A stretch of DNA of 64,000 nucleotides, taken from the sequence record SRR22947727_398. One strand, given 5' to 3'. Made by a program: the position numbers and the translations under genes. Numbering within the stretch: the first letter of the stretch is position 1; each line of letters opens with the position of its first letter. Positions 4,485 to 32,175 of the stretch are shown one piece after another. A model generated the notes under the pieces. That model was not told where the DNA came from, did no database searches, and saw nothing but the letters and a program-made list of their open reading frames with translations.

Positions 4485-5429
4485 CTAAAATGCTTTACGA
4501 AAAGCCCTGATAAAACTTTCTAAATCATCGTTATGAAGAAAATTTATTCCTGCTGCAGCTGGCCGTCCACCACCACTTACAAACTGAATTGCAAGCTCAT
4601 CAGAACCGACTCCTAATGAAATAGGCGCACGGATAGAAACCATATAACCATTATCTTTATGGGTCAAAATTGCATGAGCCATACTAGGGTATTTTTGCGA
4701 CAATACATTTCCAAACACCCCTGATATTCGACGAGATCCTGCACTATTTTCTAAAATTAAAATTTTTCCTAATTTGGTCAAATCTAGGGTTTTCGATTTT
4801 TCAGCAAGTAACATGTCTTGATTATATTGCTCTTCAAGTGAGTCTATTATTGCTCCATTATCTTTCAAAAAGAGCATTGGGTTCTCATAATTCAATAATA
4901 TAGAGTACAACTCAGATGGCTCATAGAGTAAATCGCTTAGTGAAGACCCATAAGAATTATAATTTATAAGCCTACCTAATCTTTGTAAACTTTCCAAAGG
5001 CAAATCATACCCTACAGACTTTCGCCACGCTAATTTCGGAAAATTATCTCCAAATGCTGCAGTTACTGCCCATGCTCTATAGGCGCCATCAAGGTATGCA
5101 TCGACTAGCATTGCTGTACACATTTCAGGGGATGTATTAATTATTGCCTCTAAGTTATCATATACTGGAATTTCTCCCGAATTATGGTGATCTATATACA
5201 GTACCCTGGCGCCATTCTGTAATATTCGAACTAAATCTTTTTTATTTGAACGCATTGAAATATCTAATACCACTACATTATCGTTCGCCCCTGCATCAAC
5301 TCGAGATAGTAGGTTTATATCTCGCTTGTAACCTGTAACTAGGGTCGAGGGTGTAGGGGAAGCAAGTCTCAACTGAAGCAAAGATAATATTCCGTCCGCA
5401 TCCCCATTAAATACATCAAAATTAGCCAT
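4485..5429 (-). CDS. DHH/DHHA1-family phosphoesterase (candidate pAp phosphatase)
   Basis: N-terminal DxDG (NGDADG), VLD, YIDHH, and C-terminal SIR...GGGRPAAAG (DHHA1-like GGGHxxAAG); start overlaps the cysNC stop (TAATG). Confidence 0.75.
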   Translation of the reverse strand: MANFDVFNGDADGILSLLQLRLASPTPSTLVTGYKRDINLLSRVDAGANDNVVVLDISMRSNKKDLVRILQNGARVLYIDHHNSGEIPVYDNLEAIINTSPEMCTAMLVDAYLDGAYRAWAVTAAFGDNFPKLAWRKSVGYDLPLESLQRLGRLINYNSYGSSLSDLLYEPSELYSILLNYENPMLFLKDNGAIIDSLEEQYNQDMLLAEKSKTLDLTKLGKILILENSAGSRRISGVFGNVLSQKYPSMAHAILTHKDNGYMVSIRAPISLGVGSDELAIQFVSGGGRPAAAGINFLHNDDLESFIRAFRKAF

Positions 5430-7342
5430 TACAAATTATAACCTGAAAGATACCCATTGTCTTTTAAATAACTCAGAATAATTTCTGAGGCTTGGTTAGC
5501 TGAAACTTTAGTGGTATCAATTTCAATTTCTGGGTTTTCTGGATTTTCATATTCACTATCGATACCTGTAAAATTTTTAATCTCACCTGCACGGGCTTTA
5601 GCATATAGCCCCTTAACGTCGCGTGATTCAGCTACATCTAAGGGTGTGTTTATAAAAATTTCAATAAAAAACTTATCTCCTAATAGGTTTCTAGCCATTT
5701 TTCGTTCTGCTTTATAAGGTGATATAAATGATGCTATTGTTATTAAACCGGCATCAACCATTAATGATGCAACTTCGCTTACTCTTCGAATATTTTCAAC
5801 TCGGTCTACCTTAGTAAACCCTAAATCTCGATTAAGACCATGCCTTAAATTATCACCATCAAGAATATATGTATGTCGGTTTAAATCAAGCAATCGTTTT
5901 TCTAGTAAATTTGCAATAGTGGATTTTCCTGAACCAGAAAGACCTGTAAACCAAAGTAAGGCTGGATTCTGATTTTTTTGTTTAGCCCTAATTAATTTAT
6001 TCACTTCTAATTCCTGCCAAACAACATTACTGGCTCTTCGAAGTGCAAAGTCCAACATGCCAACCCCTACGGTTTCATTGGTTTGACGATCAATAATTAT
6101 TAAGCTGCCTGTTTTACGATTATCCGAATAAGCATCGAAGGCAATCGGCGCTGACAAAACCAATGTTGCAACTCCTATTTCATTTAATGCCAATGTTTTA
6201 GCGGCTACTTCTGAAAAATCATTGATATCGATTTTATATTTTAAATTAGATACACTAGCTAGGACCGTATTATTAGCTGTCTTGAGTAAGTATTGTCGCC
6301 CGGGAAACAACTCTTTTTCATTCATCCACAAAATATGGGCCTGGAATTGATCAGCCTGTGCTATTGGACTATTACCTGAAGAAATAATATCTCCACGTGA
6401 GATATCAATCTGATCTTTCAGTGTCAAAGTGATCGCCATACCCTCTCGCGCGGTCTTCAGATTGCCAGCATGAGTAACAATTTCTTTTACATTTGAGCGC
6501 TTCCCAGAAGAACTCACAATAATACTATCTCCTAAATTAATAACACCGGAAGCAATGGTGCCTGAAAAACCTCTAAAATCTAGATTTGGCCTATTTACCC
6601 ATTGCACAGGAAAGCGAAAAGGTAATTCAAGAGTATTCTTTTCAACGTCAACATGCTCAAGAAAATGAAGCAGGCTAGGCCCTTTATACCATCGTGATCG
6701 GTCCGAAAGGGTTATTACATTATCACCTTCAAGGGCAGAGATAGGAATAAAAGTAATATCGGAAAACCCAAGATTTTTAGCAAATTTTCGAAAATTAACT
6801 TCAATAGCATTGAAAATACTTTGATCAAAGTCGATTAAATCCATTTTATTGATTGCCACTACAACTTGCTTCACTCCAAGCAATGAAACAATATAAGCAT
6901 GTCGACGGGACTGTTCCTGCACGCCATAACGGGCGTCAATCAATAGAACTGCCACGTCAGAGGTTGATGCTCCCGTTGCCATGTTACGCGTATACTGAAC
7001 ATGGCCCGGAGTATCAGCCACAATAAACTTTCGCTTATTAGTTGAAAAGAACTGATAAGCCACATCAATAGTAATACCTTGCTCTCGTTCAGCAGCTAGG
7101 CCGTCTACTAGAAGTGCCAAATCGACTGCATCACCCTGAGTTCCTGACTTTTTACTTTCTTTCTTGATACTTACCAGTTGGTCCTCATAAATCAGTTTTG
7201 AGTCATATAGTAGCCGACCAATCAATGTGGACTTACCATCATCAACCGATCCGCATGTTATAAAGCGAAGAAAACTCTTATTCTCCTGAGCATTCAAATA
7301 AGCGGAAATATCGGTCTCTATCAAATCATCACGGTATGACAT
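5429..7342 (-). CDS. cysNC: Bifunctional sulfate adenylyltransferase subunit 1 / adenylylsulfate kinase (CysN/CysC, NodQ-like)
   Basis: CGSVDDGKSTLIGRLL, EREQGITIDVAY, ADTPGH, NKMD GTPase motifs plus C-terminal WFTGLSGSGKST, LDGDNLRHGL, RDVKGLY APS kinase motifs. Confidence 0.96.
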   Translation of the reverse strand: MSYRDDLIETDISAYLNAQENKSFLRFITCGSVDDGKSTLIGRLLYDSKLIYEDQLVSIKKESKKSGTQGDAVDLALLVDGLAAEREQGITIDVAYQFFSTNKRKFIVADTPGHVQYTRNMATGASTSDVAVLLIDARYGVQEQSRRHAYIVSLLGVKQVVVAINKMDLIDFDQSIFNAIEVNFRKFAKNLGFSDITFIPISALEGDNVITLSDRSRWYKGPSLLHFLEHVDVEKNTLELPFRFPVQWVNRPNLDFRGFSGTIASGVINLGDSIIVSSSGKRSNVKEIVTHAGNLKTAREGMAITLTLKDQIDISRGDIISSGNSPIAQADQFQAHILWMNEKELFPGRQYLLKTANNTVLASVSNLKYKIDINDFSEVAAKTLALNEIGVATLVLSAPIAFDAYSDNRKTGSLIIIDRQTNETVGVGMLDFALRRASNVVWQELEVNKLIRAKQKNQNPALLWFTGLSGSGKSTIANLLEKRLLDLNRHTYILDGDNLRHGLNRDLGFTKVDRVENIRRVSEVASLMVDAGLITIASFISPYKAERKMARNLLGDKFFIEIFINTPLDVAESRDVKGLYAKARAGEIKNFTGIDSEYENPENPEIEIDTTKVSANQASEIILSYLKDNGYLSGYNL

Positions 7343-8448
7343 TAGAAATAACCTTCCTCTTTTTTCTGCTCCATTGAAGCATCAGAGTCTAAATCGATAA
7401 TCCGGCCCTGCCGCTCAGATGTAGTTGTTAAAAGCATTTCTTGAATAACATCGAGAAGCGTATCAGCTTTGCTTTCAACGGCACCCGTAAGAGGATAGCA
7501 ACCGAGCGTTCTGAAACGCACCATTTTTTCCTTTATTATATCATCGGGCCCTATTGGCATGCGATCGTCATCTACCAAGATTAAGACCCCATCCTTTTCG
7601 ACTACAGGTCGCTTTTTAGACAAATATAAATCAGGAATTTCAATATTTTCCCTGTAGATATATTGCCAAATATCTAATTCAGTCCAATTAGATAAAGGGA
7701 AAGCACGAATACTTTCACCCTTGTTCACACGAGTATTGTATATATCCCAAAGCTCAGGGCGTTGGTTTTTAGCATCCCAGCGATGCTGGGCTGATCGGAA
7801 TGATAGAATTCGTTCCTTTGCTCGTGATTTTTCTTCATCGCGCCTTGCTCCGCCAAAAGCTGCATCAAAATGATATTTATTTAGCGCTTGTTTTAGGGCT
7901 TGAGTTTTCATAATATCAGTATGTATAGCTGAACCATGGGTAAATGGTCCGATATTTTTAGCCAATCCATCAGGATTAATGTGAACGATAAGCTCCATCC
8001 CAACTTCCTTAGCGCGGCGGTCTCGAAATTTAATCATTTCCTTGAACTTCCAGGTCGTATCCACATGCATTAATGGAAAAGGCAGGCGTGATGGATAAAA
8101 GGCTTTTACTGCTAAATGAAGCATAACAGAACTGTCTTTACCAACAGAGTATAGCATCACTGGATTTTCACATTGAGCCACAACCTCACGCATTATATGA
8201 ATAGCTTCAGCCTCTAAGCGTTCTAAATGACTCATATTTAAATTATTTTTTCCGAAAAATTCATTTTCGAATTTATCAAGCCTAGTGAAAGCAGTATTTA
8301 AAGTTTTAAGAGTGCATTGACCACCAGACTTTAAACGCGCAATTCCTTTACCATCATTTAAAAGTTTTCGAGATAAAGTTGATATAGATTGCCCACTAGT
8401 AGCTGCATATGCATCGACACGAACTAAAAATTCTTTAATAGTACTCAT
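7342..8448 (-). CDS. cysD: Sulfate adenylyltransferase subunit 2 with an extra N-terminal Cro-like HTH domain
   Basis: From residue 72: [71 protein letters not shown]; 71 extra in-frame residues precede this with no stop. Confidence 0.95.
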
Positions 8449-8452
8449 AATA

Positions 8453-8468
8453 GTGGGATATATCCCAC
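8453..8468. promoter_or_regulatory. Perfect 16-bp palindrome GTGGGATATATCCCAC, candidate operator overlapping the cysD promoter
   Basis: Exact inverted repeat 4 nt upstream of the cysD ATG (8448); on the minus strand a TTGTAA (8487-8482) lies at about -35 spacing from the palindrome centre. Confidence 0.6.
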
Positions 8469-8663
8469 ATATAAAATAAATTTACAAGAATTAAGTATAA
8501 ATTATTAAAATTATCTTATAAAATAACTAATATTTATAAAATTTATGGGAAATAACAAACAATATTTTAATTTTCGAACTAAATCGCATCTATAGTAAAA
8601 AATCACTTGCCCCAAGAAGCAAGGCCTATTAATCACGCGATTACAACCAAACACAAAGCTTTT

Positions 8664-8750
8664 GCGGGCGTGGTGAAATTGGTAGACACGCAAGACTTAA
8701 AATCTTGTTTCCGTATGGAAGTGCCGGTTCAAGTCCGGCCGCCCGCACCA
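8664..8750 (+). tRNA. tRNA-Leu(TAA)
   Basis: GCGGGCG/CGCCCGC acceptor stem, TGGTAGAC D-loop, CAAGA-CTTAAAA-TCTTG anticodon arm, long variable arm, GGTTCAAGTCC T-arm, encoded ACCA end. Confidence 0.97.
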
Positions 8751-30336: not shown

Positions 30337-32175
30337 ATGCGAAAATTTTTACTTATTGGCTTTTCCACAATAGCCCTGATGGCCTGTCAGGTTGATAAAA
30401 AAACTAATGAGATAAGTAGCAAGATTTCTTCACAAAACTCAATACCAAATGAAAAATTACAACTTAACGAATGGCTAAATGATAAGTTCTATGAGAGAGT
30501 AAGGCGTTATCCCCAATACTTAGCTGGACTAGGAATAAAAGAAAGAATGAGCGAATGGAATGACCCTAGTTATGAATTTGCACTCAAAGAAATTGAAATA
30601 ATATCTAATGAAATAAATGAGATAAAAGAAAATTTCGATTTCAATAAACTAATAGATGAAGAACAATTATCGTATAGGTTATTCTTAGAAAATAGTCAAA
30701 ATAGCCTAGATCAGATGGAGTGGTGGTATCATGATTACGCCTTAACACAGATGTATGGAGCCCATTCAGGCATACCCACTTTCCTGATTAATCAGCATCC
30801 AATAGATAATATGAATGATGCAAATGACTATATAAAACGCGTTGAGTTAAGCGGTAATTATTTAGAAAAAATAATGGAAAATACGAGAGAAAGTGCTCGT
30901 AGAGGTATTCTTCCTCCTAAGTTTGTTTATGAGCATGTAATTAGCACTTCCCAAAATATTATTAGCGGCTTTCCATTTGAAAAAAGCGATGAATTAAATC
31001 TTGTATATAGTGACTTTAACAAAAAAATTTCCAAACTGAGTTTGCCAGAGGAGATATCGGAAAAACTTAAGAAAAAATTACAAAATGCCTTACAGGGCTC
31101 ATTCAAACCCTCATATTTATTGCTGATTGATGAGATGCAAAGTCAAAAAAGTCAAACAACTAACGATGATGGCGTATGGAAATTACCCGCGGGTAATAGA
31201 TATTATGCTAACCGCCTCAAAACAATGACTACAACAGAATTAAGTGCAAAAGAAATTCATCAAATAGGTCTTGATGAAGTTAATAGAATTCATGAGGAGA
31301 TGCGTGCAATAATGTTAAAGGTTGGTTTTGAAGGTGAACTTCAAGACTTTTTCAAATATCTAAAAGACGAACCTCGCTTTACATACCCGGATACCGACTT
31401 AGGCAGAGAAAATTACTTAAAAGAAGCAACACGTATAATTGAAAAAATATCAGAAAGACTAGATGAAGTATTCATTAAACTTCCTAAAGCAGATTTAGAA
31501 GTAAGAAGAGTGGAAGCTTTTAGAGAAAAAACAGCTGGTAAAGCATTTTACTCCAGAGGTACGCCAGATGGATCACGTCCTGGGTATTATTATGCAAACC
31601 TTAATGATATTAATGATATGCCTAAATACCAAATGGAGGCCTTAGCCTATCATGAAGGCAACCCTGGCCACCATATGCAACTCTCAATATCCCAAGAACT
31701 CTCAGGAGTTCCAGAATTTAGAAAGCATAATAATGTAACAGCCTACACAGAAGGCTGGGGCTTATATTCAGAATACTTTCCTAAGGAAATGGGTTTCTAC
31801 GATGATCCATACTCAGACTTTGGTCGTCTGGCGATGGAACTGTGGAGAGCTGCCCGCTTAGTTGTGGATACAGGAATTCATGATAAAAAATGGACAAGAC
31901 AAGAAGCAATTGATTATCTTCTTGCTAACACACCTAACCCTAAAAACGATTGTGAGAAAGCAATAGAGCGATACATCGTCATGCCTGGTCAGGCTACAGC
32001 ATATAAAATAGGTATGATGAAGATTTTAGAGCTTCGGGAAAATGCAAAAGTTAGACTTAAAGAAAAATTTGATATCCGAATGTTTCATGATACAGTTATA
32101 AACTCAGGGCCAGTACCTCTAAATATACTAGAGGAGCGTGTGGATAATTGGATTAATAAAGAGCTAAAAAGTTAA
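30337..32175 (+). CDS. DUF885 family lipoprotein (putative metallopeptidase)
   Basis: Lipobox LMAC; AYHEGNPGHHMQ, EGWGLYSE, RAARLVVDTGIH, PGQATAYKIG. Confidence 0.88.
   Translation: MRKFLLIGFSTIALMACQVDKKTNEISSKISSQNSIPNEKLQLNEWLNDKFYERVRRYPQYLAGLGIKERMSEWNDPSYEFALKEIEIISNEINEIKENFDFNKLIDEEQLSYRLFLENSQNSLDQMEWWYHDYALTQMYGAHSGIPTFLINQHPIDNMNDANDYIKRVELSGNYLEKIMENTRESARRGILPPKFVYEHVISTSQNIISGFPFEKSDELNLVYSDFNKKISKLSLPEEISEKLKKKLQNALQGSFKPSYLLLIDEMQSQKSQTTNDDGVWKLPAGNRYYANRLKTMTTTELSAKEIHQIGLDEVNRIHEEMRAIMLKVGFEGELQDFFKYLKDEPRFTYPDTDLGRENYLKEATRIIEKISERLDEVFIKLPKADLEVRRVEAFREKTAGKAFYSRGTPDGSRPGYYYANLNDINDMPKYQMEALAYHEGNPGHHMQLSISQELSGVPEFRKHNNVTAYTEGWGLYSEYFPKEMGFYDDPYSDFGRLAMELWRAARLVVDTGIHDKKWTRQEAIDYLLANTPNPKNDCEKAIERYIVMPGQATAYKIGMMKILELRENAKVRLKEKFDIRMFHDTVINSGPVPLNILEERVDNWINKELKS

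Follow-up and report, generated by a model that had tools for sequence, protein, structure and literature searches.

In the 64,000-nt stretch of DNA analysed here (sequence record SRR22947727_398, referred to below in its entirety as the window), the cysD gene of sulfate assimilation carries, at its 5′ end, an additional coding region for a predicted helix-turn-helix (HTH) domain, and a perfect 16-bp palindrome, GTGGGATATATCCCAC, is situated immediately ahead of its start codon. The comparative sequence data presented below indicate that this palindrome is probably the operator of a self-regulating HTH-CysD protein, and that cysD, cysNC and a gene of the DHH type would thus constitute an autoregulated trigger-enzyme operon. 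The genome from which the window derives is a 92-contig assembly of 1.83 Mb with a G+C content of 37%, and by its nearest named relatives it belongs to a Hellea-like member of the Caulobacterales.

The palindrome had been singled out in a first-pass annotation of the window as an exact 16-bp inverted repeat located 4 nt from the HTH-CysD ATG, with the caveat that repeats of this length are to be expected by chance in such DNA. The repeat was re-read at 8453–8468, and 4 nt (8449–8452) do separate it from the ATG (8448–8446) of the minus-strand open reading frame (ORF). The caveat was also correct. Five perfect palindromes of at least 16 bp are present in the window, as compared with 1.68±1.2 expected from 100 first-order Markov simulations (maximum 5), and the whole genome contains 65, of which 11 have at least eight G/C positions. 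The palindrome by itself is therefore not beyond chance, and the case must rest on its conservation and on its uniqueness in the genome. A scan for further copies, which the annotation had suggested, revealed one exact GTGGGA-N4-TCCCAC site in the genome, none with one mismatch and 25 with two mismatches. Another perfect palindrome that contains G/C is ATTACCCGCGGGTAAT, at 31182–31197 of the window, and the perfect palindrome TTGACAGCGCTGTCAA occurs in two copies on contig C8 (19635–19650 and 24342–24363), one of them extended to 22 bp. Metatranscriptome contigs of related strains show an A>G change at 8458 in one of four runs, by which the symmetry of the palindrome is broken.

The distribution of the fusion was determined with a six-frame search of 41 related genomes, using the 70 N-terminal residues. 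The domain was found in 20 of them, including 14 of the 16 other genomes of the genus, and in every case it was contained in one stop-free frame of 369–405 aa, so that fusion to CysD is confirmed in 20/20. The mean column identity in an alignment of these 20 proteins was 84%, with the CysD part intact throughout. The exact palindromic pattern was present in 18 of the 41 relatives, in one copy each, and in 16 of these it lies upstream of the fusion gene. The exact matches in two genomes that lack the fusion (G026 and G034) were rejected as operators, since both are inside unrelated coding regions and are hence attributable to chance; a control search with the reversed pattern gave matches in 2 of the 41 genomes. 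Variants of the site, with one to three mismatches, were found in the four fusion genomes without the exact pattern.

A scan of one genome per species provided a wider sample. From 112 relatives, 80 loci were kept, representing Hellea, Robiginitomaculum, Litorimonas, Maricaulaceae, Amphiplicatus, Marinicaulis, Parvularculaceae and three Sphingomonadaceae records; 76 of these loci have complete ORFs of 206–458 aa (366–458 aa in 74, and 206 aa in L102), and four are cut by contig ends. Upstream regions were compared for 85 non-redundant fusion loci (Hellea, Maricaulaceae, Parvularculaceae and some Sphingomonadaceae), a proximal site being defined as GGGA-N4-TCCC with no more than one core mismatch and at most 60 nt from the ATG. 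It is apparent that the site accompanies the fusion: 78 of the 85 loci possess it, 14–50 nt ahead of the ATG, and in 70 of the 78 it is found at −14 to −25. In Hellea balneolensis DSM 19091 (L052), the site GTGGGATAAATCCCAC is located at −24. The exact core is represented by 102 copies in 19.2 kb of upstream regions versus a single copy in the remaining 428 kb of the same loci, an enrichment of more than 2000-fold. The core was absent from the 300 nt upstream of all eight unfused cysD genes of relatives, the best sites there having at least four mismatches. The first-pass annotation had recommended just this comparison with other HTH-CysD fusions, and its results support the conclusion that the palindrome is a conserved cis-element tied to the HTH-CysD fusion. 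The annotation’s suggestion that operator and HTH were acquired together fits the presence of both fusion and sites in the Sphingomonadaceae loci L101, L108 and L115. Some short ORFs on long contigs contain the N-terminal domain only: P0023 and P0024 go out of frame after approximately 40 residues and P0008 after approximately 53, and P0006 ends at residue 68. These, together with P0022, may be frameshifted or split fusions in other assemblies.

The sites were then considered position by position. Their inner GGGA/TCCC is invariant, which is partly circular because it was the criterion for selection. The unselected outer positions also keep their sequence, with G1 in 52, T2 in 62 and A15 in 65 of the 78 sites. 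Positions 1 and 16 form a Watson–Crick pair in 25/78 and a non-pair in 38/78; for positions 2 and 15 there are no double changes and 20/78 non-pairs. Compensatory changes of the kind that would mark an RNA hairpin were thus lacking at the outer pairs, and the inner four pairs are uninformative because they never vary. Since the outer positions vary without compensation while the arms keep their sequence, the pattern is more in keeping with a site in DNA than with a stem in RNA.

A second, distal site was observed in 58 of the 78 loci, 38–128 bp upstream and beyond a recognizable −35/−10, for example TTTACA-N16-TATATG in L050 or, in Parvularculaceae-like loci, TTGCAT or TTGACT accompanied by additional TCCCAC half-sites. 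The centre-to-centre distances between proximal and distal sites fall into clusters of 72–74, 82–83, 92–95, 103 and 125–126 bp. For a period of 10.5 bp the mean resultant of these spacings was R=0.58, and on the 29 distinct distances R=0.44 (p~0.004, from related genomes that are not independent). Phasing with the helical repeat is a feature of double-stranded DNA, and suggests cooperative binding or looping. In the window’s clade only a half-site is present at the corresponding position, namely TCCCAT in G000 (−102) and TCCCAC in L039–L041 (−103). A spacing of 92–94 bp is a common class among the two-operator loci, in which related genera have a full distal operator, and the orphan TCCCAT is presumably a remnant of such an operator.

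The enzyme domain and the predicted DNA-binding domain reside in a single ORF of 368 aa, the architecture of a trigger enzyme. The CysD part scored 531.7 bits against the NF009214 CysD equivalog (cut-off 413) and matched PF01507 at 6.3e-55. An AlphaFold2 model of the N-terminal domain, built with 72 homologues, folds confidently as a four-helix HTH, with a mean predicted local distance difference test score of 91.4 and helices at residues 4–18, 22–30, 35–40 and 47–65; the same four-helix unit is seen in the full-length model, followed by a low-confidence linker at 67–70. Invariant residues include R10, T24, S26, R27, K28, N31, D32, G33, K34 and G35, so that an invariant T-x-S-R-K falls within helix 22–30. 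The only sequence match in the PDB is 3ctp, a weak one (E=1.4; none below E=1), which aligns T-x-S-R-K with the ‘TVSR’ recognition helix of the LacI type. Weak matches to PF00356, the LacI headpiece, were obtained for 21 of the 72 homologues (best E=2.5e-4) and not for the window domain itself. From this fold and motif it would follow that the fused domain binds DNA.

The first-pass annotation had cited the palindromes bound by Cro/CI dimers as a precedent. Any resemblance of the domain to these repressors would be at the level of the fold only. HTH_3 (PF01381) is absent from the 19 Pfam families matched by any of the 72 members, and the sequence matches are instead the weak LacI-type ones of the relatives and phrog_7669. 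The nearest structures are DNA-binding domains similar to lambda repressor, all of them below significance, and Foldseek returned nothing from the PDB at E≤0.001. Phrog_7669 was matched at E=5.2e-6, with residues 2–57 on profile positions 7–62 of 105, in a library without a curated cut-off. When 1.84 billion representatives were searched with a profile, 429 matches had E≤0.001, many of them to standalone proteins of 62–110 aa; the standalone homologues are 30–44% identical over the whole domain, and 18 of the 19 tested match phrog_7669. A language-model atlas pointed, as no more than a lead (score 0.92), to hypothetical proteins that are small and for the most part viral. In single-protein scans of viral contigs no relative was found, and tblastn gave no match in phage records.

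Fusions of the domain to other proteins provide additional data. When 401 evenly sampled Alphaproteobacteria were searched with the domain profile, 29 genomes gave matches, comprising four CysD fusions, 17 paralogous fusions, a few standalone genes and single other fusions. In the 17 paralogous fusions (loci L132–L145, L147, L151 and L156; e.g. L133:304-1665:-) the N-terminal domain, containing AESTFGRRAVNDGKF, heads an unrelated protein of approximately 450–500 aa with a DAGMGDG motif, for which no Pfam or NCBIfam family was found. Upstream of these genes, TGGG[AC]/[GT]CCCA half-sites occur at 20.0 per kb versus 4.3 per kb elsewhere in the loci, and inverted pairs of them at 2.94 versus 0.04 per kb. 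The enrichment does not depend on L145, a locus of a genome marked as unpublished (G279): of the 68 half-sites, 5 are from this locus, and all 10 inverted pairs are from others. These boxes lend independent support to the view that the box belongs with the domain. They lie just upstream of the genes, often beside a TTGAC −35. Two single fusions, named from their motifs, are fumarase/aspartase-like (L152) and nucleotide-sugar-dehydrogenase-like (L153), and neither has an inverted box upstream. A more far-reaching reading, possible if doubtful, is that the N-terminal domain represents an undescribed, phage-related (phrog_7669-like) family of DNA-binding modules that Alphaproteobacteria have repeatedly fused to enzymes (CysD, a methyltransferase-like protein of approximately 450 aa and possibly proteins resembling fumarase and nucleotide-sugar dehydrogenase), and that recognizes TGGGA/TCCCA; the catalytic or oligomeric state of the CysD complex would then gate looping between phased operators, and sulfate activation would be controlled without a CysB-type regulator.

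The first-pass annotation had further placed the palindrome within a near-leaderless promoter, with TTGTAA as its −35 and the −10 inside the palindrome. The operator part of that proposal is well supported by its conservation with the fusion, and the promoter part is tentative. The geometry is as described, TTGTAA (8487–8482) being followed after a 17-nt spacer by GATATA (8464–8459) on the minus strand, and there is indeed no Shine–Dalgarno (SD) sequence of the GGAG/AGGA type between −20 and −1. TTGTAA-17-GATAT(A/T) is, however, kept only in the four closest genomes (L001 and L039–L041), and a promoter scan does not list it, as it lies outside the scan’s criteria. Near cysD the scan listed TTTATA-17-TATACT (8522–8494) and TTTATA-17-TATTAT (8475–8447), of which the latter was rejected as a cysD promoter because it overlaps the ATG and could not serve it; with 28 sites found against 19.3 expected, none is compelling. 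Other Hellea genomes share a likely promoter, TTTACA/TTTTAA-N16-TATATG/TAAATG, approximately 15 nt ahead of the palindrome, and the site would then fall at about +8 to +24 of a leader of approximately 30 nt. A specific 17-nt deletion relating the window’s promoter to those of the other Hellea genomes was considered and dropped, the MAFFT alignment there being different and unreliable. RNA data were available as contigs from four metatranscriptome runs; these span 7600–8699, and with it the whole intergenic region, but 5′ ends are not visible in contigs, nor do contigs by themselves prove expression. Contigs of related strains also differ at 8484 and 8486, inside TTGTAA.

The following mechanism is proposed. 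The CysD/CysNC complex would be oligomeric, as is known of ATP sulfurylase in Escherichia coli, and two of its N-terminal HTH domains, each joined to CysD by a short flexible linker, would bind the site as duplex DNA, at its pair of GTGGGA arms. The occupied site, at or just downstream of the promoter and beside the start codon, would repress cysD-cysNC-DHH, and its geometry suggests that it would do so by occlusion. In most of the related genera, cooperative binding or looping as in LacI/GalR would be possible through a further operator that lies ahead of the −35 on the same helical phase, and in the window’s clade just the proximal operator and the orphan distal half-site would remain. Binding may be modulated by the ligand state of the enzyme (ATP, sulfate, adenosine 5′-phosphosulfate (APS), 3′-phosphoadenosine 5′-phosphosulfate (PAPS) or the CysN GTPase cycle), by analogy with BirA, whose DNA binding is tuned by bio-5′-AMP. 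We infer all three of the central elements here, namely the fused domain as the binder, repression rather than activation, and modulation of binding by substrate or product.

A number of observations weigh against the assignment of the palindrome as the operator of HTH-CysD, and bear on the alternatives to it. By the criterion employed, 7 of the 85 fusion loci have no proximal site (six have more distant sites only, and L109 has none), and because related genomes are not independent the p-values overstate the significance. The window’s N-terminal domain belongs to no Pfam family, the protein having been searched at E≤0.01 and the domain giving 0 families at E≤10. The top Foldseek rows (434 repressor, HipB, C.AhdI and SinR, with TM scores of 0.52–0.63) have E values of at least 0.37, below significance, and VIA Z values of 5–7.8, obtained for Stl, CUT domains, MuB-N, XRE proteins and MqsA, are in a range common for small helical bundles. 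Among the paralogous fusions the full inverted pair is present in only 7 of 17 loci, and in 0 of 9 standalone or other-fusion loci. The lack of a Pfam family and the structural matches below significance would suit a model in which the DNA operator is real but its binder is a transcription factor encoded elsewhere, and the domain at the N-terminus of CysD has a different use, e.g. in protein–protein contact. Such a model is decidedly unlikely, in that site and fusion occur together across several families, unfused cysD genes are without the site, one site per genome is better suited to a local autoregulator than to a global factor, and paralogous fusions of the domain to a different protein carry similar boxes. 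A fused domain that binds the site and activates, for example from the distal site in two-operator species, also appears unlikely. In L050 the distal site is some 19 nt upstream of the TTTACA −35 and centred near −62, a classical position for an activator, whereas in the window’s genus the proximal site alone is retained, and it lies at the promoter or downstream of it; sites that overlap the −10, the transcription start or the start codon are typical of repressors, and Parvularculaceae-like loci have extra half-sites over the −35 and spacer. As for a chance palindrome without function, the frequency of such repeats (5 in the window, 65 in the genome) would allow one, but the site is conserved, both in its sequence and in where it lies, over more than 80 loci from several families, and this, along with the enrichment of the core, leaves that explanation refuted, with next to no probability.

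Two further points count against a purely transcriptional operator and favour an element that acts mainly as RNA. The distance from site to start codon, near-constant at −14 to −25 in 70 of the 78 loci, is more uniform than such an operator would lead one to expect, and an SD-like purine tract directly adjoins the 5′ side of 29 of the 78 proximal sites as compared with 3 of 76 distal ones. In the 5′-leader, a hairpin with a 6-bp stem (GUGGGA/UCCCAC) and a 4-nt loop beside the AUG might mask the ribosome landing site, draw a distant SD sequence near to the AUG, or be bound by the fusion protein itself in translational autoregulation. The stem is present in both the minimum-free-energy and the centroid fold, and in the GC-richer Hellea genomes, which have a likely promoter upstream, the site would be transcribed. 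Set against this are the lack of compensatory changes and the frequently broken outer pairs, the distal copies upstream of the −35 and half-sites around it, the helical phasing of proximal and distal sites, an unexceptional fold of the 71-nt region (z=−1.7; 13 of 200 shuffles fold as well) and the lack of an SD tract ahead of the site in the window’s clade. A hairpin as the main function is accordingly regarded as quite improbable; the SD-like tracts suggest that the transcribed copy of the site may also act as an RNA hairpin, in a role secondary to that of the DNA operator. In the 29 loci concerned, among L042–L118, the tract is 20–28 nt from the ATG, and a folded palindrome would give it normal SD spacing. 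Where the site adjoins the ATG, its left arm is itself SD-like (GAGGGA, AAGGGA).

The features of the region are listed in Table 1. The cysD, cysNC and DHH genes had been taken in the first-pass annotation to form one unit, and the arrangement of the genes bears this out. In the window the start of cysNC overlaps the stop of cysD by 1 nt (TAATG), as does the start of the DHH gene the stop of cysNC. A cysN homologue is next downstream of the fusion in 66 of 76 complete loci, and the start of a DHH gene after cysNC is visible in 26 of 80 loci, most locus sequences stopping there. The DHH/DHHA1-like protein is possibly a phosphatase of 3′-phosphoadenosine 5′-phosphate. An internal start at M72, which would yield a short CysD isoform, was considered and rejected, since methionine occupies this position in 48 of the 80 loci (leucine in 26, phenylalanine in 2) and just one of those 48 ATGs has an SD-like tract ahead of it. 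The window is joined from several contigs (5000–8300 on C31, 25000 on C11 and 30676–64000 on C91), so that distances across the joins are not genomic distances.

Table 1. Features of the cysD region, in positions of the window
Feature	Position	Strand	Remarks
Proximal operator (predicted)	8453-8468	.	GTGGGA-TATA-TCCCAC, perfect 16-bp palindrome
HTH-CysD fusion gene	7342..8448	-	368 aa; CysD part, residues ~68-368
N-terminal four-helix HTH domain (predicted), coding region	8251..8448	-	Residues 1-66
cysNC (sulfate adenylyltransferase large subunit and APS kinase)	5429..7342	-	NF004035, 1006 bits
DHH/DHHA1-like gene	4485..5429	-	Pfam DHH 8.2e-5, DHHA1 2.2e-4, both below gathering score
TTGTAA, candidate −35 of the first-pass annotation	8482..8487	-	Retained only in L039-L041, as TTGTAA/TTGTAT
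Orphan distal half-site TCCCAT (ATGGGA on +)	8545..8550	-	92 bp from right arm of proximal site
Terminator-like hairpin of upstream minus-strand gene	8606..8623	-	Upstream limit of cysD control region
tRNA-Leu, divergent	8664-8750		

In the textbook view, sulfate assimilation in bacteria is regulated by separate transcription factors, the CysB-type LysR proteins. By comparison, the first enzyme of the pathway appears here to carry its own DNA-binding domain, together with a private operator found nowhere else in the genome. If this is so, sulfur assimilation would join the short list of pathways run by enzyme–repressor fusions, and a function would be assigned to the small phrog_7669-like proteins. 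NCBI names the fusion protein of H. balneolensis simply ‘sulfate adenylyltransferase subunit CysD’, and public annotation of CysD would thus miss the predicted regulatory half of the protein. The system is one that can be tested easily, consisting of a 66-residue domain and a 16-bp site, with a cultured relative in H. balneolensis DSM 19091. Among the papers listed in a literature search, judged by titles and abstract openings and with subscription journals outside its scope, there was no description of an HTH-CysD protein or of such a motif.

Among systems that have been described, the PAPS reductase of Tuber melanosporum is, according to the title and abstract opening, a moonlighting transcriptional activator (PMC4848566), and so resembles HTH-CysD in that an enzyme of sulfur assimilation, belonging broadly to one fold family with CysD (PAPS_reduct), has a role in transcription. 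It differs in being eukaryotic and reported as an activator, and it is not known to have a fused HTH or a palindromic self-operator. The ArsRM protein of Brevundimonas sp. M20, another member of the Caulobacterales, is presented in the corresponding parts of its report as bifunctional (PMC10190100); its name suggests an ArsR-type regulator joined to a methyltransferase, and hence a different type of HTH, a different enzyme, and a role in arsenic detoxification rather than in assimilation. The small phage proteins of phrog_7669 and the standalone bacterial homologues are homologous over the whole domain, but are without an enzyme, and their function is undescribed.

The arrangement of sites is reminiscent of LacI/GalR, in that the palindrome spans 16 bp and the promoter is flanked by two helically phased operators, one of them close on its downstream side, and the presumed recognition helix bears a weak likeness to the TVSR type. 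In HTH-CysD, however, an enzyme takes the place of the effector domain of the periplasmic-binding-protein type, the centre of the operator is A/T-rich rather than CG, and the window’s domain lies outside Pfam LacI. The closest parallels in terms of organization are the trigger enzymes, namely E. coli BirA, which is both biotin protein ligase and repressor of the bio operon, and PutA and NadR. HTH-CysD, known here from sequence comparison, differs from these in its enzyme, CysD having the ATP pyrophosphatase fold of the PAPS-reductase type, in its predicted four-helix fold, which may resemble that of lambda repressor or the LacI headpiece and is neither a winged helix nor a ribbon-helix-helix, and in the two helically phased operators of most of its relatives. 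As in BirA, PutA and NadR, a single polypeptide unites an N-terminal HTH with an adenylate-forming or nucleotide-handling enzyme, and its predicted target is a palindromic operator located at the promoter of its own pathway’s operon.

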